Source: Nostoc sp.
Lineage (GTDB): Bacteria > Cyanobacteriota > Cyanobacteriia > Cyanobacteriales > Nostocaceae
Assembly: GCF_036917195.1 (NCBI RefSeq)
Contig: NZ_JBALDG010000013.1
Span: forward strand, 95,885-127,884
Direction: 5' to 3'
DNA: 32,000 bases
In this document: one piece after another, positions 10,519-32,000 of the stretch
Position numbering within the stretch: position 1 is the first letter of the stretch
Layout of the letters: each line of letters begins with the position of its first letter
Position numbers and translations under genes: made by a program
Notes under the pieces: model-generated
The model's database searches: none
Told to the model about the DNA's origin: nothing
Seen by the model: the letters and a program-made list of their open reading frames with translations, nothing else

Positions 10519-10539
10519 TTTTCTCTCACACACCACAAT

Positions 10540-10570
10540 ATCCCAGATCACAACAATCTTGATTTGGGAT
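10540..10570 (-). promoter_or_regulatory. 11-bp imperfect inverted repeat in the TBDT1 leader (operator or 5'-UTR hairpin)
   Basis: atcccagatca (10540..10550) and tgatttgggat (10560..10570) are complementary at 10 of 11 positions, with a 9-nt spacer. The repeat ends 22 nt upstream of the TBDT1 ATG. Confidence 0.35.
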
Positions 10571-10639
10571 TTATTATCAACAGCATACGGGAATCTCTAG
10601 TGAAAAATTCGAGCTAAGTATATGCCGAAACGGATTTTT

Positions 10640-11668
10640 TTAGGTATTTTTGGCAACAATAAATCTATCTAAGTATTGACTAGGTTGGATGTCAAAGCGC
10701 TTTTTAAAAGCCACTGCGAAACGACTAGGACAGTCGTAACCCACTATCTTAGCTACCTGTTTTATGGTCATTTGCTGACTCATGATTAGTGTTCTAGCTT
10801 TTTCCATCCGGTATGCCCATAAATAGCCAAATACTGTTGTGTTAAAAACCTGACGGAACCCGATTTTCAGCTTGTAATCGTTCAAACTTACTTTTCGCGC
10901 CAATTCTAGCAACGAGGGTGGATTGTCAAAATCGGAGATTAAAATTGCTCTGGCATGGTAAATTCGGTCAATATCATCTCCTCGCAAAATGCGCGATCGC
11001 ATCAATTCCCGTTCCCCAGATGTATCGGGTTCCAACTTCAAAGCCATTAATTCTAGACACTTGGCTTGCAAGTAAATTTCTTTAATTAAACCTTGGAAAG
11101 GACAATTAACTATTTGATGCAAAATAATTTGCATTTCCGGTGTAGTTTGCCCGATGCGGAAGTAGTTGAGAAAGGATATATTGTCAGTTTCTAGATACAA
11201 CTGGAGTGATTTGGGTAGAAAGTCTAAGCCACTAACTTCATCTCTGCAAAAGAATTCCTGTGGATTGATCCCAATCTCTACCTCCAGAATGCGTTGACCT
11301 GCCCGCCAATAAGATCCACTACCAGGAATTTCCTTATCCAAATCAAAATAAGTTGCAGTGAAATTTTTTCCTCCAGGTATCATTTCTGACTCATTGTCTC
11401 CGATAACTGCAAAACTAAACTCCATTAAGGGAAGGTTATATGCCTCTGTCTCAACAATTAAATCTTCGGCTAAGTCGTACTGTTTTAGTAGTAAGTTGAT
11501 ACCTGTAGGGAAAGCCATTACGTGGTAATAACCCTGACTTTGCTGTTTTGGATCGTCCAACACTGCTAAATACCCAGTATTATATGAGTTGGTTTTTGTA
11601 GGTTCAGAGGTTAGAGTAGTATTTTGCTGTTGGTGATAGGCTTCTCTTGCTGAAAGAAACAGAGTCAT
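10640..11668 (-). CDS. AraC-family transcriptional regulator (PchR/YbtA-like siderophore-responsive type), copy 1
   Basis: 342 aa. The C-terminal double HTH reads ...PPSLLELARKVSLNDYKLKIGFRQVFNTTVFGYLWAYRMEKARTLI...IKQVAKIVGYDCPSRFAVAFKKRF. It lies immediately upstream of the receptor gene. Confidence 0.9.
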   Translation of the reverse strand: MTLFLSAREAYHQQQNTTLTSEPTKTNSYNTGYLAVLDDPKQQSQGYYHVMAFPTGINLLLKQYDLAEDLIVETEAYNLPLMEFSFAVIGDNESEMIPGGKNFTATYFDLDKEIPGSGSYWRAGQRILEVEIGINPQEFFCRDEVSGLDFLPKSLQLYLETDNISFLNYFRIGQTTPEMQIILHQIVNCPFQGLIKEIYLQAKCLELMALKLEPDTSGERELMRSRILRGDDIDRIYHARAILISDFDNPPSLLELARKVSLNDYKLKIGFRQVFNTTVFGYLWAYRMEKARTLIMSQQMTIKQVAKIVGYDCPSRFAVAFKKRFDIQPSQYLDRFIVAKNT

Positions 11669-11835
11669 TTTTGTGATTTATTGATATTTTCTCCTAATTA
11701 TCATATAGTTGGTTGTTTGGGTGGTAGTAATGCGATCGCCTATCTGCCCTACAACAAGACAAAATTTAAATATTTTTACACAGGTTCTTGCTTGAAAGTA
11801 AAGGCGATCGCTCTAATCATAGGTACAGTCAAAAC

Positions 11836-11862
11836 TTAGTTACGCAGACTTTTGATAGTCAT
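11836..11862 (-). pseudogene. 8-codon stump of a deleted PepSY gene downstream of TBDT2
   Basis: The minus strand reads ATG ACT ATC AAA AGT CTG CGT AAC TAA (MTIKSLRN*). This aligns with the PepSY1 start MTYKTLRNF, and the spacer to the TBDT stop is also conserved (compare 11863..11887 with 7812..7836). Homology ends after codon 8. Confidence 0.6.
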
Positions 11863-11887
11863 GGTAGATATTCCTGCAAAATAAAGG

Positions 11888-14548
11888 TCAAAACTCAAAC
11901 GAAATCGTTCCCAACACAGTCAAGGGTGCTTGAGGAAAGAGGTAGTAGCCATTCGTGTCGTAATATTTGACATCAAAGATATTCTTAAAGTTGAGCGCAG
12001 CCCGCCAATTATCACGTTTGTAGGAGATTGCGGCATCAGTTCTGACGTAAGAAGGAATAGTAAAGGGATCACTCTGATAGGCAATGCGCGAGCCGACAAA
12101 AAAGATACCTGCACCAAACTGTAATCCTTGCAAGTCACCCTTTTGAATTTCATAGGTTGTCCATAAAGAAGCGCCATGATAAGCTGAATTTTCCAGTCTG
12201 CTTCCTACTGGAATGCTGTTATCCTTGCTCACAAATGCATCATTCAAATACCCAGAAGCAATAATCTTCCAACCTGGTAAAATTTCTCCTGCTACATCCA
12301 GTTCAATCCCTCGACTTTTTACTTCTCCCACTGCGATTGAGAAGTCGGTATTGTTAGGGTCTGTTGTGAGTATGTTTGTTTTAGTAATATCATAGGCGGC
12401 TAGCGTTGCCGAAAGCCGTCGCTCAAAAAGCTCAGATTTTATACCAACTTCGTACTGTGTACCGCGAGAAGGTTCGAGTATTTCTCCACTAGCCGTTCTG
12501 CCAGTGTTGGGAACAAAGGAACGGCTGTAACTAGCATAGAGCGAAATCGGCTCTATGGGTTGATAGACTAATCCCACACGGGGCGAAAAGGCATTACCGT
12601 TAAACTCAGAGCTATTGATGTCTCCACCTAATGGTCTTGTACTATTGACGCTATCAACAAAATCGTATCTACCACCAACCAGCAACTTCAAATTAGATAG
12701 TAGGGTTACCTGGTCTTGCAAATAAAGACCTAGTGTGTCGGTTTTGCCAGAATAATAAGTAGCATTTTCTAAGGTTGTAGGACGGCCAGCACCATAGACA
12801 GGATTGAAAATATCGATTAAGCCAGTACTATAGTTATAGTTAGATAAAAGACCAGGTGGTGATGTGTTTCGACTCAACTCCAAACCTAGCAGGAGTTGAT
12901 GGGCAATTGAACCAGTATTGAACTTACCAATTAAATCATTTTGCCAGGAGTAGTATTTAGTGAGGAGATCGTCGTTTACTGAGTAGTCGCGCTGCAAAGT
13001 ACGACCATCTGATTGAATGCTGTCAATGTTGACATAGGCACTGTTATCAACGAACGATTGGAAAAAAAGAGCGCTTCGCAGTTGTAAACTTTTGCCGAAA
13101 TGCTGATCCAGCGTTAAAGATGCGCGATGATAGTCTAGATTGTTAAAGTCATTAGGCTCTCCGAAGTTGCGAGTGATGGGAAGCGTCAGAACGGGGTTAT
13201 TCGGTGGAAAGGCGCGATCAAATCCTCCACGTCGTCTACCATACTGGTATTCAAAAGTGAGAGCTGTGTTTTCGCTAGGCTTATAAGTGATGACAGGGGA
13301 CACAGTGAAATTATCGTAATTATAGAAATCCCGGTAACTGCCGGAATTCTCGTAAGCAACATTCAAGCGATAGAGTAATTTTTTGTCGGTGGTGAGTGGT
13401 CCAGAAAAGTCGATGGTACCCCTATAAAAACTGAAACTACCTGCTGTAAATTCTGCTGCATAGTAGGGATCGCTCAAGGGTTGCTTAGTCACATAATTGA
13501 CGACACCGCCCGGTTCAATCTGACCATACAATACAGAGGCAGGACCTTTAAGAACTTCAACTCTCTCTACACTGGCTGTAGCTGGAGGATAGCTGTCGGT
13601 TTTGAAACCATTTGTCAGAATGTTGTAGTTGGTAAATCCTCGAATCGTGTAGATATCAAATGCATTGGCAAAGCCTGTTAACGGGGACACGCCGGACACA
13701 TTGCGGGTCGCATCGCTAATCCGCGTGATTTGCTGGTCTTTGATTACCTCTTGCGGGATAACTTGAATCGATTGGGGAACATCACGTAGAGGTGTATCGG
13801 TTCTGGTAGCAGTTGATGAATTTGTGACACGATAATTATCTTGTTCGCCAGTCACCACTAACTCAATCGGCTCATCACCCGAAGCTGATGGTTGAGTTGG
13901 TTGTGTCTGATTCTGTGGCTGACTAGTTTGGGGTGGTTGTGTTTGCGGTTGCTGCTGTGATGGTGTGGGTGATGCCGCGCTGGCGACAGAGAAAATTATC
14001 CCCTCATCTGGACTATCAAACAACTCCACAACTGGCTGACTCACTTGGCCTGTGACTATTACCCTGATAGTATTGGCATCAAAGTTTGTCACCGTGATTT
14101 CGCTAACACCCGCTATTGGTTTATCTGAGCGAAACGTAAACGCATCGCCCGACGGGAGGCGCAATTGGGCATTTGGAATATCAGTGATAAAATTATTACC
14201 ACTAGAGCGATTTACTAGCGGCAACTGTTGTCCCTTAGATGTCTGTAAAATTACCTCTACACCTTTATCGGTGGGGTTTGCTTTGACTGCTGTAACTTGC
14301 ACAATTTCTGATGTGGGTGTTGGCGACTGCACTAATAACATGCGAGCACTAGTCAAAACAGGTTCTATCTCACTTAATTGCCTAATCCTCTTATTTGCAT
14401 TAGTTGCTGGGATCATCTGAGGTAAGCTCCGATTTTCTCGGTTGTTTGTCAGATTCTGGCTAGGACTAATTTCTTGTGCTGATACAGTCTGTCCAAAAAA
14501 CACTGACACTAAAGTAGCCACCAACAATGGCAGTTGCAAATTCCACAT
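11888..14548 (-). CDS. TonB-dependent siderophore receptor with N-terminal AMIN domain (TBDT2, paralogue of TBDT1)
   Basis: 886 aa with signal peptide MWNLQLPLLVATLVSVFFGQTVSAQE. It has the same AMIN / PQ-linker / plug / barrel layout as TBDT1. Long stretches are near-identical to TBDT1 at the DNA level, especially at the 3' end (11888..12040 versus 7837..7990). Confidence 0.95.
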   Translation of the reverse strand: MWNLQLPLLVATLVSVFFGQTVSAQEISPSQNLTNNRENRSLPQMIPATNANKRIRQLSEIEPVLTSARMLLVQSPTPTSEIVQVTAVKANPTDKGVEVILQTSKGQQLPLVNRSSGNNFITDIPNAQLRLPSGDAFTFRSDKPIAGVSEITVTNFDANTIRVIVTGQVSQPVVELFDSPDEGIIFSVASAASPTPSQQQPQTQPPQTSQPQNQTQPTQPSASGDEPIELVVTGEQDNYRVTNSSTATRTDTPLRDVPQSIQVIPQEVIKDQQITRISDATRNVSGVSPLTGFANAFDIYTIRGFTNYNILTNGFKTDSYPPATASVERVEVLKGPASVLYGQIEPGGVVNYVTKQPLSDPYYAAEFTAGSFSFYRGTIDFSGPLTTDKKLLYRLNVAYENSGSYRDFYNYDNFTVSPVITYKPSENTALTFEYQYGRRRGGFDRAFPPNNPVLTLPITRNFGEPNDFNNLDYHRASLTLDQHFGKSLQLRSALFFQSFVDNSAYVNIDSIQSDGRTLQRDYSVNDDLLTKYYSWQNDLIGKFNTGSIAHQLLLGLELSRNTSPPGLLSNYNYSTGLIDIFNPVYGAGRPTTLENATYYSGKTDTLGLYLQDQVTLLSNLKLLVGGRYDFVDSVNSTRPLGGDINSSEFNGNAFSPRVGLVYQPIEPISLYASYSRSFVPNTGRTASGEILEPSRGTQYEVGIKSELFERRLSATLAAYDITKTNILTTDPNNTDFSIAVGEVKSRGIELDVAGEILPGWKIIASGYLNDAFVSKDNSIPVGSRLENSAYHGASLWTTYEIQKGDLQGLQFGAGIFFVGSRIAYQSDPFTIPSYVRTDAAISYKRDNWRAALNFKNIFDVKYYDTNGYYLFPQAPLTVLGTISFEF

Positions 14549-23234: not shown

Positions 23235-24905
23235 TTAGGCTCCGGGTTTGAAATAATCAAAGAGGCGATCGCCTGAATCTGCGCGAATCAATGCCACAAC
23301 TACATCGGGTAAGGTGGTTAAACTAGGGTAAACCAAATAACGTGGTTCCCAACCGGGGCGGAACTTGTCTTTGTAGGAGTGCAGTCCTTTGAAATTGTAG
23401 AAGCGACTCAAATGTTGGTAAAGATAGTGCAATACTTTCTCCAAGCGGCGCGATTCTGGGTTGTCTCCAACTCCCGCAAAGGCAGAAAGACCGAAATTAA
23501 AGCTGTCGTAGCCACACTCTTTAAAATGCTGGAGTAGGGAAATAAATAGAAAGTCCATTGTGCCATTTTCGATGGACGGGCGGTGTCGCATCATGTCAAT
23601 GGTCGCTTCGTTGAGTTGGTACTCCCGGACAATGTTAGCAAAGGCGCTGATCTCACCTTCGGGATTATGCATTACAGCAATTTCGCAGTCTCGCAGGTAA
23701 GCTTCCTCAAACCAACCTAAAGAAAAGTGTTTTTCTGAACCTTGTACCATCTTCAGCCATTCATCACTCACAGGTTTGAGTCGGTGCAATAAATCATTGG
23801 CGATGGGTGGTTGGTAAAAATCGATTTGGTATCCTAGCTTAGTTAAACGATTGATTGATGGTCTAAAGTTTTTACCGGCTTTACCTTGTAAGGTAAAAGT
23901 TTTCAGGTCAACGATCGCTTCTTCTCCAATCTTGAGTACCTTAAACCCCAACGATTTGTAAAGCTGAATATCATCAGGCAAAGTTTGGTAAAAGCCAGGA
24001 TACCAATCGTTGCGCTGGCAAAACTGCTGGAAAGCAATAATTGTCTCTTTGCGGTCTTCAATCGGGCCTATGGGATCTCCTAAGGCGATCGCACCCCGTC
24101 CTTTGGGAACATAAGCAATTACACTGTTACCAGTAGGACTAAAATAATAACTTTTATCATTTAATAGGGTCAACGCTGCTAAAGAAGAACGGCCGTATTG
24201 CTCGACAATTTCTTTTGCCTTTTGCTGTTCCTTTGGGGTTGCTAGATTCCGCCAAAATACAGGTTGCAACAGCATTAATATTGCATATGCAATGGTAACC
24301 GCGGCAATAATATAGATGGAATTAGCAAAAAATTCTCCAAATCGGCCCTTTGGTTGCAGTCCCCAATTATCCTCGGTGAAGAACATCGCTAAAGTCTGAA
24401 CTATCGCTTCACGCCAATTAAAATTCTCTGAAAACTTGCCGTCTAACAAGTAAAATCCAATAGTTCCATATGCCAGAGTAAATAATAAAGCGCCTATTAG
24501 CACTCGAACTCCCCGTGCGATTGAAGGACGGTCTGATTTTGCTGTGAAAAAATGGCGCATCCAGATTAATTGCAGCAGCAAAACTCCAGAGAGGAGACTT
24601 TCTTCATAATCTAATCCCTTCAGCAAGTGGCTAAAAATGGAAATCACTAGTAAACCAATGGTCAGTAACCAGGCTATTCTTTTTCGCCGTAACAAGTTAG
24701 TAGCAAGTGTGAGTAAAACAAAGCCAGTCAGCGCTGCAAATACATGACCAGTGGCACGAATTTCAAATGGTAAAAATTCCTTCAACCAGTGATTTCGCCC
24801 ATATAGGTTAGGTGTCACTGCTGATAACAAATTTATTACTCCGACTAAACCTGTAAGGAAAGCTACATTCCAAAGTCCAATCTGAGTTTTTAAATTATTG
24901 GTCAT
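23235..24905 (-). CDS. mprF: aminoacyl-phosphatidylglycerol synthase, MprF C-terminal half (about 6 TM helices plus a DUF2156 synthase domain)
   Basis: 556 aa. The N-terminal third is polytopic (…GLWNVAFLTGLVGVINLLSAV…). A soluble domain follows with the MprF/LysX-type layout (…YFSPTGNSVIAYVPKGRGAIALGDPIG…FSLGWFEEAYL…FNFGLSAFAGVG…YNFKGLHSYKDKFRPGWEPRYLVYP). Confidence 0.88.
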   Translation of the reverse strand: MTNNLKTQIGLWNVAFLTGLVGVINLLSAVTPNLYGRNHWLKEFLPFEIRATGHVFAALTGFVLLTLATNLLRRKRIAWLLTIGLLVISIFSHLLKGLDYEESLLSGVLLLQLIWMRHFFTAKSDRPSIARGVRVLIGALLFTLAYGTIGFYLLDGKFSENFNWREAIVQTLAMFFTEDNWGLQPKGRFGEFFANSIYIIAAVTIAYAILMLLQPVFWRNLATPKEQQKAKEIVEQYGRSSLAALTLLNDKSYYFSPTGNSVIAYVPKGRGAIALGDPIGPIEDRKETIIAFQQFCQRNDWYPGFYQTLPDDIQLYKSLGFKVLKIGEEAIVDLKTFTLQGKAGKNFRPSINRLTKLGYQIDFYQPPIANDLLHRLKPVSDEWLKMVQGSEKHFSLGWFEEAYLRDCEIAVMHNPEGEISAFANIVREYQLNEATIDMMRHRPSIENGTMDFLFISLLQHFKECGYDSFNFGLSAFAGVGDNPESRRLEKVLHYLYQHLSRFYNFKGLHSYKDKFRPGWEPRYLVYPSLTTLPDVVVALIRADSGDRLFDYFKPGA

Positions 24906-25107
24906 TAGTCTAAAAGTATTAATTAGAAGTTAGGAGTTTTGGCTCTACCACTCTCTTTAGGGACTAAAATAATAAACAAACTAGTTTTATCGGCTGTGTT
25001 ACTTATACGGGTTAAGTTTCGATGTTTTGAATTTTCTCCATAACACCTTAATTTGAATGTCATAGCACAACCAAAGCGGTAGAACCTGAGTTTTCAAATT
25101 TTAACTC

Positions 25108-26010
25108 TTAACTGTTAACTTTTTTAAATTGTTCCCCTACATAGGAAAGCGAATCTTTAAGATGTTTGTGGAAGTAGTTCCAGCCTACATCAGCGCCAGA
25201 CAAACCATGACCTCCTGGAAACGCATAAAATACGTGAGCAATGCCTAATTTGTTTAAGGTTTCGTTGAAGGCTTTGGTAGAAGCCAGTAAATTAGTATCG
25301 TTCAGACCCGCATCCAGGTAAACACGCAATCGCTTGCGATCTTCAGGTGATAGCTGTTGCACGATTTGTTGGGGACTATTTTGTGAACCGCTATTATCAG
25401 TAAAGTAACCGCTATGACTAAACAGAATATGGAAGTTGTTCAAATAGCGTAACCCAATATTAAAAGCCCCCCATCCCCCAGAAGAAAGACCTCCCAACGC
25501 CCAAAACTGGGGTTCTTCTAAAGTGCGGTAGCGCGACTTGACAACTTGTACTAATTCTAAACCAATCAAAGTCCCTATTTTACCATTCGGCCCATCAAAG
25601 TAATCAGGATCATACAAAGGACTAGAACCGCGATTATCATTACCATCAGGTGTAATCACAATCGATGGTGGTAATTTTCCATTTTGATAAAGCTTATGCA
25701 GTATGTCTAAAATTGCATATTTATCAGCGTAAGCACGGGCATCATCATGACCACCGTGTAGTAGGAATATCACGGGGTAGCGCTTTTGCTGATTTTTGTT
25801 ATAACCAGGGGGCAAAATCACGCCGTAGTTACGGACTGCACTCATCGCTTGGGAGTTGAAGGTTGCTAATTGAAACTTTAGCCCAGTATTTGCTTGTTTT
25901 TGGGGCGGGTCTAGTTGCGGCGCACCTAAGATAAATACATAATAATAACCACTAATAGTAAGGATAGCGATCGCTCCTGCCAAACTAATTAAAAATTTAG
26001 AAATTTTCAT
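25108..26010 (-). CDS. secreted/membrane-anchored alpha/beta-hydrolase, 'putative esterase' (esterase D / Fes / Ag85-like) family, paralogue A
   Basis: N-terminal anchor helix, YPVIFLLHGGHDD, LPPSIVITPDGNDNRGSSPLYDPDYFDGPNGK, nucleophile elbow GGLSSGGWGA and ILFSHSGYF. It is collinear with paralogue B. Confidence 0.85.
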   Translation of the reverse strand: MKISKFLISLAGAIAILTISGYYYVFILGAPQLDPPQKQANTGLKFQLATFNSQAMSAVRNYGVILPPGYNKNQQKRYPVIFLLHGGHDDARAYADKYAILDILHKLYQNGKLPPSIVITPDGNDNRGSSPLYDPDYFDGPNGKIGTLIGLELVQVVKSRYRTLEEPQFWALGGLSSGGWGAFNIGLRYLNNFHILFSHSGYFTDNSGSQNSPQQIVQQLSPEDRKRLRVYLDAGLNDTNLLASTKAFNETLNKLGIAHVFYAFPGGHGLSGADVGWNYFHKHLKDSLSYVGEQFKKVNS

Positions 26011-26131
26011 CTTTTTTTAGTTGGTAAAAAAAGTTATCTCTAATCAAACTCACTTCTAGTTAATCTGCTACAATTTTCCAGCAGAGTTTTCAATATTTAC
26101 ATTTTGATATGAATGTTTTGATAAAATTGGA

Positions 26132-27103
26132 TTATTTTTGAGTATTGTTAGCAGAGAAATCTAATTTTTCAGATTTATGTGCTATATCAGACAATCTAAA
26201 TTGTTCGCCCACAAATGTCAAAGAATCGGCTAAATGTTTGCGCCAGTATTTCCAGGTATGACTGCCAGGGAACTCACGAAATAGATTATAAATTTTTAGT
26301 TCGTTTAGAACTTTAGCAAATTTTTCGGCTTGGTCGATTTCTTCAATATCTGATTTACCTGAATCTAAATATATCCGCAACCTTTTTTTAGCTTGTGGAG
26401 GAATGGTTTTAATATAAGCTATTGGACTATTGATTGGGCCGCTTTTATCCTGAAAATAACCACTATGACTAAATAAGATCGAGAAATGATCCGGGTTATG
26501 TAATCCCACATTGATTGCTCCCCAACCACCAGAAGATAGACCACCTATTGCCCAAAAATCTGGATTGGTTAGTGTCCGATAACGGCTTTGCACAACTTTT
26601 ACTAACTCATCCCCCACGGCTGTAGAGACTTTACCGTTAGGGCCATCAATATATTCAGGGTCCCGGTAGGGACTAGAGCCACGTTTGTCGTTGCCATCTG
26701 GTGTGATGATGATGCTGGGTGGCAACTTCCCTGTAGTATAAAGTTGTTCCACAGTCTTGAGAGCTTGTCCCTTGTTTTGAATAAACCAATCAGTGGGGTT
26801 ACCATGTCCACCGTGGAGGAGAAAGATTACAGGATAGCTTTGTTTTGGGTTTTGCCCATAGCCAGGGGGTAAAGAAACGCCGTAGGTACGACTTGCGCCC
26901 ATTACTTGACTATCGTAAGTTTCAATTTTGTAACTTAGGGGAGTAGCTACGTCGCTAGCATTAGGTTGGGTTGGTGGGACAGAAGGCATTGTTTGTAAAT
27001 CTTGCTGTTGAGGTATTTTTGCTGCTACAGTTTGACGGTAATTACAGCCAACTAGAGTTAATACTGAAACTAGCAAGAGAATTTTAGATTGTTTGTAGTT
27101 CAT
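26132..27103 (-). CDS. lipoprotein alpha/beta-hydrolase of the same esterase family, paralogue B
   Basis: Lipobox LTLVG-C at the N-terminus, then YPVIFLLHGGHGN, LPPSIIITPDGNDKRGSSPYRDPEYIDGPNGK, GGLSSGGWGA and ILFSHSGYF. Confidence 0.85.
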   Translation of the reverse strand: MNYKQSKILLLVSVLTLVGCNYRQTVAAKIPQQQDLQTMPSVPPTQPNASDVATPLSYKIETYDSQVMGASRTYGVSLPPGYGQNPKQSYPVIFLLHGGHGNPTDWFIQNKGQALKTVEQLYTTGKLPPSIIITPDGNDKRGSSPYRDPEYIDGPNGKVSTAVGDELVKVVQSRYRTLTNPDFWAIGGLSSGGWGAINVGLHNPDHFSILFSHSGYFQDKSGPINSPIAYIKTIPPQAKKRLRIYLDSGKSDIEEIDQAEKFAKVLNELKIYNLFREFPGSHTWKYWRKHLADSLTFVGEQFRLSDIAHKSEKLDFSANNTQK

Positions 27104-27246
27104 CTTTGAAGGGTGTGGGGCATTTGGCAGTTGATGCTGGCAATCAAAAGCTTATGCAAATGATATGTCAATGCTGTGTCAACCTAATGGAAACTTTACG
27201 ACTGCTAATAAGTTAAAAGTAAAGAGTTAGGATAAGTTTTTTCACG

Positions 27247-28200
27247 ATGCTTAAAAAGTTGCAACACAATTTCAGTTCTTTGTTTGGCTTGTTGCTGCTG
27301 GTGCTTTCCCTGTGGGCGATCGCTCACGAATTACGTGAGTATAATTATCGTGATATCTTCAACTCTCTAGCTACTATTCCCAAAAGTCGCTTAAGCTGGG
27401 CAATTTGGCTGACAGCCTTGGGCTATCTAGTGATGATTGGGTACGATATCTTAGGTTTTAGCTACATTAATCGTTCCCTAAGTTGGAACAAGATTGCTTT
27501 AACCAACTTTATTAGCTCTGCGTTTAGTAATACGATCGGTTTTGCTTTGCTGACTGGCAGTGCTATTCGTTATCGATTTTATGCTAGTTGGGGAGTGTCA
27601 GCAGTAGCGATCGCTCAAGTAATTGCTTTTGCCAATTTTACTTTTTGGTTGGGGATGTTTGCTGTTGCAGGTTTCTTGTTCCTTGTCAACCCCCTGAAAA
27701 TTCCCACTCAACTACATTTACCTTTTACCACTGTGCGTCCCATCGGCGTGATTTTTCTGCTATTGGTAGCTATCTATTTGCTAGGAAGTATTCTTATTCA
27801 ACAACCGTTAATAATTCGTGGACAAGAATTTCGATTTCCTTCTTTTAAAATATCCCTTGCACAGATAGCAATTTCAAGCTTTGACTGGATTTTGGCAGCG
27901 GCAGTTCTTTATGCTGTGCTTCCTGCTAATATATCTTTGTCCTATCTGGATTTTTTGGGAATCTACTTACTAGCGATGTTTGCAGGTGTTGTTAGTAATG
28001 TCCCTGGTGGTTTGGGAGTGTTTGAAACTATAATTTTGCTGATTCTCTCCTCAAAAGTTTCTGGTGCAGCAATTTTGGGTTCATTGCTGGCTTATCGGGG
28101 AGTCTACTATTTCTTACCTTTGCTAGTAGCAGCGGGTTTGCTAGGACTTTATGAAATTAGATTGAGATCCGCTAATTTCAAAAATATCAATAAACTGTAA
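27247..28200 (+). CDS. lysyl-PG synthase TM-region family protein (UPF0104 / MprF flippase-type domain)
   Basis: 317 aa with about 8 TM helices. It has an MprF N-terminal-type start (…LWAIAHELREYNYRDIFNSL…) and the family motif SNVPGGLGVFE near the C-terminus. Confidence 0.85.
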   Translation: MLKKLQHNFSSLFGLLLLVLSLWAIAHELREYNYRDIFNSLATIPKSRLSWAIWLTALGYLVMIGYDILGFSYINRSLSWNKIALTNFISSAFSNTIGFALLTGSAIRYRFYASWGVSAVAIAQVIAFANFTFWLGMFAVAGFLFLVNPLKIPTQLHLPFTTVRPIGVIFLLLVAIYLLGSILIQQPLIIRGQEFRFPSFKISLAQIAISSFDWILAAAVLYAVLPANISLSYLDFLGIYLLAMFAGVVSNVPGGLGVFETIILLILSSKVSGAAILGSLLAYRGVYYFLPLLVAAGLLGLYEIRLRSANFKNINKL

Positions 28201-28263: not shown

Positions 28264-28481
28264 AAGACTTTCAATTAAGTAAAATCGGTAACTGCTGTTA
28301 ATTTTAAATACGGAATACTTCAGCGATATCTTCACAAATAGCGGCGGAAAATCATAATTTTTGCTGACGCGATCGCTAATTTTATTCCATAAAGATAGTA
28401 ACAGTTAGTGGCAAATTTTGAATGAGATTTCCATAAATCATCATCAAGATTCGGTTTTACTGATTGAGGATAGAAAAAATT

Positions 28482-28871
28482 ATGAAAAACAGAGTATTGT
28501 TTGCTATGAAGATTAGGGAAACTTGGGTAGGAACATTGATTCCCAGTGCTTTTGCTGCTTCACCCTATTCTGTGGGACAAAAGGCTGAGGTTCTTTGGCA
28601 GGAAACATGGTATCCGGCAACGGTTCTTAATGTTAATCATGATCAGTGCTATATTACCTACGATGGTTATGATAGCTCCTGCGATGAATGGGTTGGATAT
28701 TCACGCTTTCGAGCATCATTTCAAACGGGAGATTCAGTAAGAATTTTGTGGAAGGGGATATGGTATCAAGGACAGGTTTTAGAAGTTAGTAACAATCTTT
28801 ATAAAGTTACTTATGATGGCTACGATCGCTCTTGGGATGAGTGGGTTGAACCTTTCAGGGTAAGCAGATAA
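28482..28871 (+). CDS. small secreted protein with two Tudor/Agenet-like (SH3-fold) repeats
   Basis: Signal-peptide-like N-terminus (…GTLIPSAFA-AS). Two ~50-aa repeats follow: VGQKAEVLWQETWYPATVLNVNHDQCYITYDGYDSSCDEWVGYSRFR and TGDSVRILWKGIWYQGQVLEVSNNLYKVTYDGYDRSWDEWVEPFRV. The ATG at 28482 is preferred over the TTG at 28464. Confidence 0.7.
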   Translation: MKNRVLFAMKIRETWVGTLIPSAFAASPYSVGQKAEVLWQETWYPATVLNVNHDQCYITYDGYDSSCDEWVGYSRFRASFQTGDSVRILWKGIWYQGQVLEVSNNLYKVTYDGYDRSWDEWVEPFRVSR

Positions 28872-28897
28872 GGAATATTTCACTTTTATAAGTTGGG

Positions 28898-28950
28898 AGG
28901 GACGATTTCACCTGTAGGAGTCGTCCCTTAAATTGTTTTATGATTTATTT
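28898..28950 (+). terminator. candidate rho-independent terminator after the Tudor-like gene
   Basis: agggacga (28898..28905) pairs with tcgtccct (28921..28928) around a 15-nt loop. A T-rich tail follows (taaattgttttatgatttatttt). Confidence 0.5.
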
Positions 28951-29030: not shown

Positions 29031-29471
29031 ATGGAGCCAGTATCACTGACAGCAGCTGCGATCGCAAACTTGGTGATCACCAAAGCTATAGGAAAAACCG
29101 TAGAGAAGATAACAGAAAGTACACTGGACAAGCTAAAACTGCTGCGTCAAAAAATTTGGGATAAGTTCAAAGGTAAGCCGAAAGCACAGGAAGCCTTAAC
29201 AAAAGCTGAACAAGGTTCTAAGCAAGATTTAGATTTAGTGGCTACCTACTTGCAAGTGGAGATGGACACCAACCCCCAATTTGGCGAAGAAGTTCAAAGC
29301 CTTGCTAAAGAAATTCACCAGGAAATTAATATTGGCAAGGTTCAAGGTAAAAATGTCCAGAATGTTTATGGAGGTCAAGGTTTTCAAAGCAATGATAGTA
29401 AAGCTCCTACGTTTCAAGGTGTAGAAAATAGCCCCATTACTATCAATTACAATAATCATCCCCCTGATTGA
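29031..29471 (+). CDS. N-terminal module of the NLR-like gene (helical, Bell/HeLo-like candidate effector), terminated by an in-frame TGA
   Basis: 146 aa from the ATG at 29031. It begins with a hydrophobic helix (MEPVSLTAAAIANLVITKAIG), continues as a K/E-rich helical region and ends in a G/N/Q-rich tail. It is in the same frame as ORF 29532..32000, and the TGA at 29469..29471 is the only stop between them. Confidence 0.7.
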   Translation: MEPVSLTAAAIANLVITKAIGKTVEKITESTLDKLKLLRQKIWDKFKGKPKAQEALTKAEQGSKQDLDLVATYLQVEMDTNPQFGEEVQSLAKEIHQEINIGKVQGKNVQNVYGGQGFQSNDSKAPTFQGVENSPITINYNNHPPD

Positions 29472-29531
29472 CTACAGTCGCCTGAATGGGAACGGGTAAA
29501 GTTAAATCCCTCTACTGAAATACCGCAAAAT

Positions 29532-32000
29532 TTGCCCCTGAGTGGAGTGGTGGAATTTGTCGGGCGTGAGGAAGAATTGCAAAACCTCCACCAACTTTTG
29601 CAGGATAATAAACAAGTTGCGATCGCAGCTATTGCTGGTATGGGTGGAGTTGGTAAAACAGAACTCGCTCTGCAATATACCATTCAGCAACGCGAAACAT
29701 ATAAGGGTGGGCTTTGCTGGTTGCTAGCAAAAACTGGGGATGTGGGCATTCAAGTTGTGCAGTTTGCCAGAACGCAGCTTGATTTAAAGCCGCCAGAAGA
29801 TTTTGATATACTCGCGCAAGTGCAATATTGCTGGCGGCGTTGGTGTGAGGGTGATGTGCTGCTAGTGCTGGATGATGTCAGCGACTACGAGGAAGTTAAG
29901 CCTTACTTACAGTCGCTATCTTCTCGGTTTAAAGTGTTGATGACTACGCGCCAGAACTTGGGACGCATCGCACAGTTATCTTTGGATGTGCTGCAACCAG
30001 AAGCGGCGCTGGAGTTGTTGAGGTCTTTACTCAAAGAAACACCAGAGCGAATTGAGCGAGAATTAGCTTTAGCAAATCAGTTGTGTGAGTGGCTGGGATA
30101 TTTACCTTTGGGTGTGGAATTAGTGGGGCGCTATCTGGCGCGGAAACAGGATTTATCCTTGACAGAAATGTTGCGGCGGTTGGAAAACAAGCGATTAGAT
30201 GAGCGTTCCCTCTCTAAATCTATGTTGGAAGCCGACATGACAGCACAACGAGGTGTGTTAGCAGCCTTTGAGTTGAGTTGGCAGGAATCAGAGGACGACG
30301 ATAAGCAACTGGGTTGTTTGTTGAGTTTATTTGCCGCCGCACCTATACCTTGGAAGTTGGTGGAACAGTGTTTGCCAGAAGAAGATGCGGAAGATTTAGA
30401 AGAAATTAGAGACGATAGCTTGCTGAATCTACATTTACTCCAGCGCAAAGGTGAGGGAGTTTACCAATTGCATCCACTGTTGCGGCAGTTTTTCCAATAT
30501 AAGTGTATAGGTTTAGAAAAGGCAGAAAAACTTAAGCGATCGCTTTGTCGGGTAGTGGTAGCAGTTGTTAAAGATATTCCTCAAACTCCCACCCTTAAAC
30601 AAATCACCGATGTCACACCTGCAATACCTCATTTAGCTGAAGTAGCAAAAAATCTCATTCAATATGTCAGTGATGATTATTTAATTTGGGCTTTCACCAG
30701 CAATGCTAGATTTTACAGTGGTCAAGGTTTATATAACCAAGCTTTACCTTGGTATGAGCAGTGTTTAAAAGTCACTAAAAAGCGCTTGGGTGAAGAACAT
30801 CCAGATGTCGCAGAAAGTCTCAACAATCTAGCGACACTCTACGACTCTCAAGGCAGATACAGCCAAGCCGAACCCCTTTACATCCAAGCTTTGGCACTCT
30901 ACCGCAAGCTGCTGGGTGAAGAACATCCAGATGTCGCACTTAGTCTCAACAACCTCGCGTATTTCTACAACTCCCAAGGCAGATACAGCGAAGCCGAACC
31001 CCTTTACATTCAAGCTTTGGCACTCTACCGCAAGCTGCTGGGTGAAGAACATCCAGATGTCGCACTTAGCCTCAACAACCTAGCGTTTCTCTACGAGTCC
31101 CAAGGCAGATACAGCCAAGCTGAACCCATTTACATGCAAGCTTTGGCACTCAGGCGCAAGCTGCTGGGTGAAGAACATCCAGATGTCGCACAAAGTCTTA
31201 ACAACCTAGCGGGACTCTACGACTCCCAAGGCAGATACAGCGAAGCCGAACCCCTTTACATCCAAGCTTTGGCACTCTACCGCAAGCTGCTGGGTGAAGA
31301 ACATCCAGATGTTGCACTTAGTCTCAACAACTTAGCGACACTCTACAACTCCCAAGGCAGATACAGCCAAGCCGAACCCCTTTTCATTCAAGCTTTGGCA
31401 CTCTACCGCAAGCTGCTGGGTGAAGAACATCCACATGTCGCACTTAGTCTCAACAACCTAGCGGTACTCTACGACTCCCAAGGCAGATATAGCGAAGCCG
31501 AACTCCTTTACATCCAAGCTTTGGCACTCAGGCACAAGCTGCTGGGTGAAGAACATCCAGATGTCGCACTTAGTCTCAACAACCTAGCGTTTCTCTACTA
31601 CTCTCAAGGCAGATACAGCCAAGCCGAACCCCTTTACATCCAAGCTTTGGCACTCTACCGCAAGCTGCTGGGTGAAGAACATCCATCTGTCGCCAGAAGC
31701 CTCAACAACCTAGCGGGACTCTACAACTTTCAAGGCAGATACAGCGAAGCCGAACCCATTCATATCCAAGCTTTGGCACTCAGGCGCAAGCTGCTGGGTG
31801 AAGAACATCCAGATGTCGCAGCTAGTCTCAACAATCTGGCAAAACTGTACTATTTACAAGGACGTTATACCGAAGCTGAACCATTGTATCTGCAAGCTTT
31901 GGAGATTTGTAAGCAACGACTAGGGGTGAATCATCCCTGGACTGTTAAGTGCCGTGAAAATCTAGCAAATCTTCGCGATCACCTTTCCTTAGAGCAGTAA
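29532..32000 (+). CDS. NB-ARC (AP-ATPase/STAND) plus TPR NLR-like protein; the frame is open from 29472
   Basis: FVGREEEL lead-in, Walker A GMGGVGKTELA, Walker B LLVLDDV, MTTRQ, GYLPLGVELVG (GLPL-like) and LHPLLRQF (MHD-like). Ten 42-aa TPR_10/12-type units follow (LGEEHPDVAxSLNNLAxLYxSQGRYSxAEPLYIQALALYRKL). There is no ATG before the P-loop. The stop is at 31998..32000. Confidence 0.92.
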   Translation: MPLSGVVEFVGREEELQNLHQLLQDNKQVAIAAIAGMGGVGKTELALQYTIQQRETYKGGLCWLLAKTGDVGIQVVQFARTQLDLKPPEDFDILAQVQYCWRRWCEGDVLLVLDDVSDYEEVKPYLQSLSSRFKVLMTTRQNLGRIAQLSLDVLQPEAALELLRSLLKETPERIERELALANQLCEWLGYLPLGVELVGRYLARKQDLSLTEMLRRLENKRLDERSLSKSMLEADMTAQRGVLAAFELSWQESEDDDKQLGCLLSLFAAAPIPWKLVEQCLPEEDAEDLEEIRDDSLLNLHLLQRKGEGVYQLHPLLRQFFQYKCIGLEKAEKLKRSLCRVVVAVVKDIPQTPTLKQITDVTPAIPHLAEVAKNLIQYVSDDYLIWAFTSNARFYSGQGLYNQALPWYEQCLKVTKKRLGEEHPDVAESLNNLATLYDSQGRYSQAEPLYIQALALYRKLLGEEHPDVALSLNNLAYFYNSQGRYSEAEPLYIQALALYRKLLGEEHPDVALSLNNLAFLYESQGRYSQAEPIYMQALALRRKLLGEEHPDVAQSLNNLAGLYDSQGRYSEAEPLYIQALALYRKLLGEEHPDVALSLNNLATLYNSQGRYSQAEPLFIQALALYRKLLGEEHPHVALSLNNLAVLYDSQGRYSEAELLYIQALALRHKLLGEEHPDVALSLNNLAFLYYSQGRYSQAEPLYIQALALYRKLLGEEHPSVARSLNNLAGLYNFQGRYSEAEPIHIQALALRRKLLGEEHPDVAASLNNLAKLYYLQGRYTEAEPLYLQALEICKQRLGVNHPWTVKCRENLANLRDHLSLEQ
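30786..31985 (+). repeat. tandem 126-bp repeats (9 near-identical units plus 1 degenerate unit) encoding the TPR array
   Basis: ctgggtgaagaacatcc recurs at 126-nt intervals from 30912 to 31794; unit 1 at 30786 reads ttgggtgaagaacatcc. A degenerate tenth unit starts at 31920. Stretches of more than 40 nt are identical between units. Confidence 0.95.

Follow-up and report, generated by a model that had tools for sequence, protein, structure and literature searches.

Probable programmed UGA readthrough between a small helical head module and an NLR-like receptor in Nostoc and other cyanobacteria

Stop-codon readthrough stimulated by a pseudoknot is textbook knowledge for retroviruses and, to our knowledge, is undescribed for cellular bacterial genes. 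The subject of this study is a 32,000-nucleotide (nt) stretch of a Nostoc sp. genome (NCBI RefSeq assembly GCF_036917195.1, contig NZ_JBALDG010000013.1, positions 95,885 to 127,884 of the forward strand; hereafter the window), which ends in an open reading frame (ORF) for a protein of 146 amino acids (aa) and an ORF for an NB-ARC–TPR receptor of the NLR-like STAND type, joined in one frame with a single TGA between them. The data presented here suggest that this UGA is probably recoded, with programmed readthrough making a full-length protein from one translational unit (29031..32000). According to a review of viral and other readthrough (PMC7026636), UGA is the leakiest stop codon, a C at position +4 and the sequence UGA-CUA promote readthrough, with UGA-CUA and UGA-CUG being readthrough-prone contexts, and murine leukemia virus (MuLV) uses an 8-nt spacer plus a pseudoknot (Feng 1992, Wills 1991/1994, cited therein).

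The closest systems at the protein level are the Bell-type proteins that accompany NLR genes. The BASS amyloid-signaling motif occupies the C-terminal ~25 aa, is rich in G, N, Q, V and I, poor in K, P and L, and has beta propensity. The published screen for such pairs (Dyrka et al., bioRxiv 10.1101/2020.01.06.895854) looks for motifs common to two separately annotated proteins. The Bell, Hell and Babybell domains are all-alpha folds of ~80-100 aa. According to the Bab/Agp preprint (bioRxiv 10.1101/2024.11.07.622273), their hydrophobic helix 1 is cupped by four other helices, and a conserved N-terminal 'MEPIS' motif (a region of ~15 aa) is also present in Avast2 and some bNACHT NLRs. Neither of the two preprints mentions stop codons or readthrough.

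Conservation of the stop and the reading frame

The small ORF of the window ends at the TGA at 29469..29471 and is followed by 842 codons in the same frame, which run to a stop at 31998-32000, where the window ends. The +4 base after the TGA is a C (29472). Between the stop and the P-loop there is no ATG, GTG or TTG other than a TTG at 29532 and two GTGs directly 5' of the FVGR motif, and the earliest ATG after the stop encodes the Met within the P-loop GMGGVGKT. The initial annotation, made from the window sequence alone, had described the shared frame, the single TGA and the lack of an ATG ahead of the P-loop, with TTG 29532 as the called start. All of this is confirmed, TTG 29532 indeed being the first ATG, GTG or TTG after the stop. 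Of the two starts given for the small ORF, ATG 29031 was retained and GTG 29013 was not, because all homologues begin with MEP. The post-stop body is a STAND NLR-like ATPase, with an NB-ARC domain (PF00931, 59.8 bits with a gathering cut-off of 23.5, E 3e-16, residues 33-254 of the post-stop frame), a Walker A motif and C-terminal repeats (TPR_12 in 9 stretches, E 1e-151; TPR_10 in 10 stretches). No terminator-like site was found between the small ORF and the NB-ARC ORF.

Sixty genomic loci encoding relatives were collected and pooled with an independent metagenome sample, which gave 84 distinct homologous junctions. The loci came from Nostoc, Scytonema, Tolypothrix, Brasilonema, Calothrix, Rivularia, Fischerella, Floridaenema, Thainema, Tumidithrix, Pseudanabaena and others, and isolates, metagenome-assembled genomes (MAGs) and metagenomes are all represented. 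At nearly all of the 60 loci the small ORF ends in TGA-C and the long ORF continues in the same frame at the next codon, with the P-loop 47-62 codons after the stop. The stop is TGA in 83 of the 84 junctions and TAG in one, and neither TAA nor a sense codon occurs at this position. The +4 base is C in 81 of the 84, and the base preceding the stop is U in 53 of 58 junctions and C in the other five. By comparison, among the stops of 188 flanking ORFs (>=200 aa) from the same loci, TGA makes up 25% and TGA-C only 2.7%. UGA-C is the termination context that the initial annotation had flagged as weak.

The frame is strictly kept as well. The conserved FVGR and the P-loop of the STAND ATPase are reached in frame without a further stop in 69 of the 84 junctions. 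Among these 69, no ATG lies between the stop and FVGR in 68, no ATG, GTG or TTG in 31, and a Shine-Dalgarno-like sequence precedes a candidate start in only 3. Frame 0 stays free of stops over the first 23 post-stop codons in 80 of 81 junctions; frame +1 is closed in 68 of the 81 and frame +2 in 66. The distance from the stop to FVGR takes six values (23, 24, 25, 28, 30 and 31), whole codons throughout, and the downstream ORFs are intact over 400-1100 codons. In Scytonema sp. HK-05 the annotated start is a GTG inside FVGR, which truncates that motif; gene callers pick the first available start, and thus the start falls there. On this evidence the downstream ORF is conserved in frame and under purifying selection, with a codon-position profile of coding type in its NB-ARC segment. 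The stop itself is old and specific, and can be put down neither to an error nor to a recent interruption of the frame.

Four explanations for the TGA had been proposed in the initial annotation: recent inactivation of an all-in-one NLR, a sequencing error, readthrough giving an abundant short product and a rare full-length one, and a fresh split into two genes. It had also asked which codon orthologues carry at this position, and the answer is a stop, never a sense codon. Retention of the stop from Nostoc to Pseudanabaena and Thainema rules out both recent inactivation and sequencing error. A fresh split is not compatible with an ancient arrangement in which 31 of 69 downstream ORFs have no canonical start before FVGR. 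Readthrough is supported by the comparative data, and is strengthened by the covarying pseudoknot described below.

The pseudoknot downstream of the stop and its distribution

A compact H-type pseudoknot, which had been overlooked in the initial annotation, starts exactly 8 nt past the UGA (window 29480..29510). It consists of a stem 1 (S1) of 5 base pairs (bp), a stem 2 (S2) of 4 bp, a loop 1 of 3 nt, a one-base junction and an A-rich loop 3 of 9 nt (AAAGUUAAA). Pairs were counted on a structure-blind MAFFT alignment of 58 junctions (A3), in which S1 is formed by columns 21-25 with 37-41 (GCCUG/CGGGU in the window) and S2 by four loop bases with a downstream tetramer (GGGA/UCCC in the window). 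Standard pairs fill 96.8% of cells, and sliding the 3' partners by 1-3 columns lowers this to 22-53%. For covariation the score is 0.402 versus <=0.115 for the slid partners, and none of 500 shuffles reached 0.402. Double-sided changes were found in six of the nine pairs and in both stems, for example C-G 28 / U-A 24 and C-G 25 / G-C 10 / U-A 9 in S1, and A-U 48 / C-G 6 and G-C / C-G / A-U in S2. RNAalifold recovers S1 independently. Rfam gave no match, either for the junction at E<=10 or for the whole window at the gathering threshold, and single-sequence folding of the window junction was uninformative (z 0.74) with ViennaRNA, which cannot model pseudoknots.

The codons before the stop vary widely by lineage, and the ~40 nt after it are near-constant at the nucleotide level. 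Conservation at codon positions 1/2/3 is 1.13/1.21/1.16 bits over the 14 post-stop codons, compared to 1.25/1.54/0.57 bits in the NB-ARC segment, which has the usual coding profile. In L030 a 1-nt loop insertion keeps the nucleotide motif and shifts the local peptide frame, and a 1-nt deletion ~30 nt further on restores it; L056 and L057 have a +1/-1 indel pair within the pseudoknot. These frame-restoring pairs lie upstream of any start codon. Additionally, changes in S2 alter the encoded residues as well (L049, L051 and L052). The indel pairs, the conservation of third positions and the change of residues along with S2 show that it is the RNA, rather than the peptide, that is under constraint.

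A covariance model of the junction found one copy per locus and no other copy in 468 kilobases (kb). When public metagenome contigs were scanned with a pattern for the pseudoknot only, which specified neither stop nor spacer, all 32 matches had a TGA exactly 8 nt upstream of S1, in frame with a head ORF (upstream ORFs of ~140-180 aa) and a STAND ORF. The pattern was absent from viral contigs, and among the junctions and long homologues examined the pseudoknot was never found with a sense codon at the stop position. One apparent sense-codon variant, P0078, reads as ...LPKD-W-LNSSERDRTKLTPP...GMGGVGKT and was rejected, since the DNA has a TGA followed by the pseudoknot; this TGA (L095 920-922) was read as Trp by a public metagenome gene caller, apparently under another genetic code. 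Database proteins with W at this position are therefore not to be taken as sense-codon variants. These comparisons make the junction a candidate for programmed readthrough of the MuLV type, with UGA and C at +4, a fixed 8-nt spacer, a covarying pseudoknot and a conserved in-frame ORF.

The bodies behind the head, UGA and pseudoknot are of several kinds (NB-ARC-TPR, NACHT-HEAT, and NACHT with transmembrane (TM) segments), so that the three upstream parts behave as a cassette shuffled among receptor bodies. Genuine head–NB-ARC fusions that have no pseudoknot-encoded linker also exist (P0189, 967 aa, and P0151, 1512 aa), which indicates that the long architecture is biologically viable.

Individual loci show further variation. 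In the sole TAG junction (L051 4448-4450) the pseudoknot is fully compensated (GUCGA/UCGAC; CAGA/UCUG), C is still found at +4 and the spacer still measures 8 nt; its contig ends 36 codons after the TAG. In the Nostoc-type loci L011 and L014 a 7-codon insertion (MSTTGYAYA) lies just before the P-loop strand, ~50 codons after the stop, and lengthens the interval from stop to P-loop from 55 to 62 codons; the inserted ATG makes a P-loop-proximal start possible. At eight loci (L002, L025, L048, L049, L062 (9648), L071, L078 and L084) the downstream body is frameshifted or truncated and the head, UGA and pseudoknot are intact, which suggests either that receptor bodies are decaying or that MAGs were misassembled; some genomes may keep the short product with no receptor. 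Downstream ORF length varies by locus from ~415 to 1111 codons. Two UGA-pseudoknot cassettes lie a few kb apart on one contig in L062 (4004 and 9648) and in L089 (5186 and 8113), and the genes can therefore be tandemly arrayed. Several genomes have at least two paralogues (e.g. L008/L013, L022/L027, L029/L034 and L035/L037). Three distant TAG-T homologues (L058-L060) were set aside as not being canonical Bell/NLR pairs, and gave no further insight.

The head module, the two-isoform model and its alternatives

A word-index search with the 146-aa product returned 65 clusters (90% identity), all of 139-167 aa and none fused, and an exhaustive profile search returned 695 clusters at 50% identity, mostly of 130-160 aa, with longer homologues examined only among its best 150 matches. 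Neither the 146-aa head nor any of three other head subfamilies had a significant match in Pfam, NCBIfam or PADLOC. The head starts MEPVSLTAAAIANL and thus has an MEPVS N-terminus. Among 31 homologues conservation is at least 90% at M1, E2, P3, L6, T7 and A8 and complete at I11 and A12; the positions conserved across the superfamily are M1, E2, P3, L6, T7, A8, I11, A12, L14 and K18. The upstream ORFs share the N-terminus MEPxxLTAxAIAxLxxTKAxEKTxEK and have very divergent C-terminal tails. The existence of several unrelated head families was considered and rejected, as blastp single linkage joins all of them into one superfamily with divergent tails.

AlphaFold2 (AF2) modeling of the helical part with a 51-sequence alignment (predicted local distance difference test, pLDDT, 80.3; predicted template modeling score, pTM, 0.72) places helices at residues 8-16 (helix 1), 29-45, 50-60, 64-80 and 82-104 within 107 residues. 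As a prediction this fits the Bell domains in helix count and size, the two features compared. The last 39 residues (108-146) have pLDDT <50 and no secondary structure. Across 77 modules the tail shows enrichment of N (5.1x), G (2.6x) and Q (1.5x) and depletion of K (0.26x), L (0.1x), E and A. Apart from an enrichment of P, this is similar to what is reported for BASS motifs, and the tail is a candidate amyloid-signaling (BASS-like) segment. No copy of the tail motif was found in the post-stop N-terminus (LQSPEWERVKLNPSTEIPQNLPLSG...). The NLR body would carry the motif only within the readthrough product, and since the NLR as annotated lacks a motif at its N-terminus, genes of this class would go unnoticed in a BASS-type screen for motif pairs. 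The initial annotation had compared the head to Bell/HeLo-like executioner domains and pointed out its G/N/Q-rich tail. The composition of the tails upholds the second point. A Bell-like head is supported by the MEPVS motif, the predicted helix 1 plus four helices and the tail composition, but the suggested comparison with Bell and HeLo profiles and structures found no counterpart, with profile and Foldseek searches giving nothing below E ~1. A role for the head in membrane targeting or cell killing is putative and uncertain.

The head with its N/G/Q tail also forms the N-terminus of other proteins (P0068, P0117, P0198, P0076, P0100 and P0167), where it precedes a TIR domain (P0068) or a CHAT-like domain with HFSGHG...LNACYS (P0117 and P0198). 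A recurring uncharacterized C-terminal domain (…DLWxxYSxxxFGFSxQKxIY…) is also found in head-sharing proteins. This points to a wider network of proteins in cyanobacteria that appear to share the head.

The model proposed here is that most ribosomes would stop at the UGA (29469-29471) and release an abundant 146-aa protein of head and tail, while a minority would decode the UGA with a near-cognate tRNA (tRNA-Trp being a guess) and continue in frame. The readthrough product would be ~989 aa long, with the same head and tail, the linker and the NB-ARC-TPR body, and its junction peptide would be APTFQGVENSPITINYNNHPPD-X-LQSPEWER, where X is the residue placed at the UGA. Three cis features may promote readthrough: the UGA-C (usually UGA-CUA or UGA-CUG), the invariant 8-nt spacer and the H-type pseudoknot. 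A ribosome with the UGA in its A site would have the pseudoknot at its mRNA entry channel, as in MuLV gag-pol. Upon sensing a ligand the long isoform would oligomerize and bring its heads and tails together, and the clustered heads and tails could recruit or template the abundant short isoform. The identical tail could act as an amyloid-like template, as it does in Bell/BASS-NLR and HET-S/NWD2 pairs; alternatively, the heads could make homotypic contacts. Either would lead to membrane damage or another downstream response. A single ORF would guarantee matched interaction motifs and a fixed sensor-to-effector ratio.

The sequences themselves show the conserved stop, its context, the spacer, the frame, the covariation, the missing starts and the true fusions, whereas the occurrence of readthrough, its efficiency and the inserted amino acid are inferred. 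The functional model of two isoforms is much less certain than readthrough itself. The full proposal of a portable recoding cassette, in which pseudoknot-stimulated readthrough would yield a head-only executioner together with a rare sensor that templates its own short isoform, is put forward tentatively.

Several points weigh against this interpretation. The evidence for readthrough comes from comparative sequence alone, and we know of no demonstration of pseudoknot-stimulated readthrough on bacterial ribosomes, so that the proposed mechanism is an analogy drawn from eukaryotic viruses. Decay or assembly errors have left the downstream ORF truncated or frameshifted in about 15 of the 84 junctions. 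The structure was drawn by eye from the same sequences in which its pairs were counted, which inflates the contrast with the slid controls, and the aligned junctions are related by descent. The stems are short (5 + 4 bp), and S1 of the window itself has two G·U pairs. With regard to the head, HeLo-type Pfam families gave no match at E<=1, the best match of a PDB profile search was unrelated (E 0.93), and Foldseek gave a best E of 1.0 with the full length and 3.7 with the helical domain only; homology to the known members HeLo, Helo_like_N and Bab (9H9V) was thus not detected. Proline is enriched 2.1x in the tails of the 77 modules, unlike in described BASS motifs. Also, since the head is fused to TIR and CHAT-like domains as well, its executioner role is uncertain and an adaptor role is possible.

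One alternative accepts readthrough and gives the short product a different function. It could be a head-only decoy that restrains the receptor, comparable to the CARD-only and PYD-only proteins of animals, or a homotypic adaptor that links the receptor to separate TIR/CHAT-type effectors with the same head, comparable to the effector-associated domains of bacterial conflict systems. The position of the head N-terminal to TIR, CHAT-like and other domains (P0068, P0117, P0198 and P0076) is what would be expected of an adaptor domain, and the Pfam, PDB profile and Foldseek searches found no fold or profile similarity to pore-forming domains. However, the MEP-x-S N-terminus with a predicted hydrophobic helix 1 and four further helices fits the description of the Bell/Babybell membrane-targeting domains, and the N/G/Q tail resembles amyloid-signaling motifs. 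A decoy or adaptor role is possible but less likely.

The main rival to readthrough itself is independent initiation or reinitiation. Under this explanation there are two separate genes, termination is efficient, the NB-ARC-TPR protein is made by reinitiation or from a non-canonical start (AUU, CUG, AUA or the TTG 29532 of the window), and the pseudoknot is a coupling, processing or regulatory element. A TTG or GTG is present 20-26 codons after the stop in the window and in most Nostoc loci, Bell and NLR genes are known as tightly spaced collinear pairs, and termination-reinitiation coupling exists in bacteria (PMC6728339). However, as counted above, 31 of the 69 junctions have no ATG, GTG or TTG before FVGR and only 3 have a Shine-Dalgarno-like sequence, and the annotated Scytonema start truncates FVGR. 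Two genes would also leave unexplained the constant shared frame, the six whole-codon length classes, the +1/-1 indel pairs in what would be an intergenic segment, and the selection for TGA-C over TAA or TAG. This explanation is therefore considered unlikely.

Selenocysteine insertion, with the UGA as its codon and the hairpin as a bacterial selenocysteine insertion sequence (SECIS) bound by SelB, would account for a UGA closely followed by a conserved stem-loop. It is very improbable. tRNA-Sec (anticodon UCA) was found in 0 of 61 cyanobacterial genomes (survey in PMC6933170; the element-carrying genomes themselves were not scanned), no Cys codon (TGT or TGC) occurs in the 84 junctions, unlike in typical selenoprotein families, and the TAG junction keeps its pseudoknot through compensatory changes. 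The loop bases that SelB would bind are paired in S2, and the site is a variable inter-domain linker rather than a redox motif. An inactivating mutation or assembly error in an all-in-one NLR, for which the true fusions P0189 and P0151 and the further downstream frame breaks in L002, L025, L048 and L049 could be cited, has next to no probability: 83 of the 84 junctions, whether from isolates, MAGs or metagenomes and across many genera, have one and the same codon at this site, the downstream ORFs are long and intact, and the flanking RNA signal is conserved. A -1 frameshift was rejected, as the junction lacks a slippery heptamer and the downstream ORF continues in frame 0.

Features of the window and relation to described systems

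Coordinates of the gene and its proposed signals are collected in Table 1.

Table 1. Features of the head–NB-ARC-TPR locus, in window coordinates
Feature	Coordinates	Strand	Basis or remark
Terminator-like hairpin (28897-28929) plus T-run ending the upstream gene	28897..28939	+	5' boundary of transcription unit
Short isoform ORF, head module plus tail (predicted)	29031..29468	+	146 aa; homologues are stand-alone proteins
MEPVS motif and hydrophobic helix 1, residues 1-16	29031..29078	+	Most conserved part of the superfamily
Helical domain, residues 1-107	29031..29351	+	AF2 prediction
N/G/Q-rich tail, residues 108-146 (VQNVYGGQGFQSN...PITINYNN)	29352..29468	+	Predicted disordered; candidate BASS-like amyloid-signaling segment
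UGA-C, proposed leaky stop signal	29469..29472	+	Conservation across junctions
8-nt spacer CUACAGUC, stop to pseudoknot	29472..29479	+	Length invariant
Pseudoknot stem 1, 5' strand GCCUG	29480..29484	+	A3 alignment, covariation
Pseudoknot stem 2, 5' strand GGGA, inside stem 1 loop	29488..29491	+	A3 alignment, covariation
Pseudoknot stem 1, 3' strand CGGGU	29493..29497	+	A3 alignment, covariation
A-rich loop 3 (AAAGUUAAA), 9 nt	29498..29506	+	Conserved at nucleotide level
Pseudoknot stem 2, 3' strand UCCC	29507..29510	+	A3 alignment, covariation
Predicted readthrough extension: linker, NB-ARC, helical spacer, TPR repeats	29472..31997	+	Pfam, translation
FVGR motif	29556-29567	+	
NB-ARC domain	~29568-30233	+	
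Walker A GMGGVGKT	29637-29660	+	
TPR repeats, ~10	~30621-31922	+	

The TPR sensor (~30620-31920, + strand) is made up of about ten near-identical 42-aa repeats (LGEEHPDVAxSLNNLAxLYxSQGRYSEAEPLYIQALALYRKL) that differ at few positions, the pattern expected for NLR sensors that diversify by repeat shuffling. Directly upstream of the NLR unit lies a 135-aa ORF (28464-28871, + strand) with two Agenet/Tudor-knot/chromo-like repeats (Pfam Agenet E 5.5e-10), followed by the terminator-like hairpin; this fold is best known from eukaryotic chromatin readers. Further upstream is a split MprF-like cluster (23235-28200), with an LPG_synthase_C protein that has a tRNA-synthetase-type TM region (23235-24905, - strand), a separate LPG_synthase_TM protein (27247-28200, + strand) and two 'putative esterase' genes in between (25108-27103, - strand). 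A pair of paralogous TonB-dependent receptors (7837-10551 and 11888-14548), both of which have an AMIN domain at the N-terminus, occupies 7837-14548 on the - strand with a 342-aa ORF between their genes.

In a literature collection of large but incomplete coverage, no description was found that combines readthrough, recoding or an in-frame stop with NLR, NB-ARC, Nostoc or cyanobacteria, in keeping with the suggestion in the initial annotation that this would be an undescribed regulatory layout for a bacterial NLR; nothing was found there on Npun_R4603-4605 either. The components are of known kinds (programmed readthrough, the NLR and the Bell-like head), and the combination, the bacterial cellular setting and the pseudoknot appear to be new. 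If the interpretation is correct, this would be the first stop-codon readthrough programmed by a structured RNA in cellular bacterial genes, and the ~45-nt element with its natural compensatory variants would be ideal for studying mRNA structure versus release factor 2 (RF2) on 70S ribosomes. It would also be a third form of NLR–executioner wiring beside all-in-one fusions and two-gene amyloid pairs, with a single ORF yielding both partners, identical interaction motifs and hard-wired stoichiometry. Hundreds of cyanobacterial NLR genes would then appear to be mis-annotated, with artificial internal starts and a "hypothetical protein" upstream.

Among recoding systems, the junction most resembles MuLV gag-pol. 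In both, an in-frame stop parts an abundant short product from a rare extended one (as predicted here), an H-type pseudoknot comes after an 8-nt spacer, and the immediate 3' context of the stop is important. However, MuLV uses UAG-G and eRF1, whereas the junction has UGA-C and would be read by a bacterial ribosome with RF2; its pseudoknot is far smaller (5 + 4 bp, ~31 nt), and MuLV is a virus whereas the junction belongs to a cellular multi-copy gene family known from sequence only. Closer in size are the luteovirus-type pseudoknots such as the -1 frameshift signal of beet western yellows virus, which have a G+C-rich 5-bp stem 1, a very short stem 2 and a one-base junction. As in the junction, an A-rich loop crosses stem 1 and the recoding site lies 6-8 nt away, but these pseudoknots drive -1 frameshifting at a slippery heptamer, and the junction has no slippery site and a downstream ORF in frame 0. 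In phage Qbeta coat/A1, a downstream structured stimulator is, as far as we know, not required. That system (cited in PMC7026636) shares UGA readthrough on a bacterial ribosome and a minor, C-terminally extended protein with a distinct function, but it is a phage gene and not a cellular NLR. Bacterial SECIS elements likewise have an in-frame UGA followed by a conserved stem-loop within ~10 nt; the differences are a lineage without tRNA-Sec (61-genome survey), the lack of Cys homologues, the TAG variant and a loop engaged in the pseudoknot.

On the protein side, the Bell-BASS/NLR pairs (bioRxiv 10.1101/2020.01.06.895854) and Bab/Agp (bioRxiv 10.1101/2024.11.07.622273) share a ~100-aa helical protein with an MEP-type N-terminus and a G/N/Q-rich tail. 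There, as here, the gene for this protein directly precedes a collinear NB-ARC-TPR/NACHT gene, and the hosts are multicellular cyanobacteria. The NLR of the described pairs is a separate protein with its own start and its own N-terminal amyloid motif, and the NLR body here has neither. The all-in-one 'MEPIS' NLRs named in the Bab paper (Avast2 and bNACHT02/11/23) are uninterrupted ORFs with no co-produced head-only isoform, and P0189 and P0151 are proteins of this all-in-one type. With Avast2 and bNACHT02/11/23 the predicted long isoform of the Nostoc locus shares its layout of MEP head, STAND ATPase and repeats.

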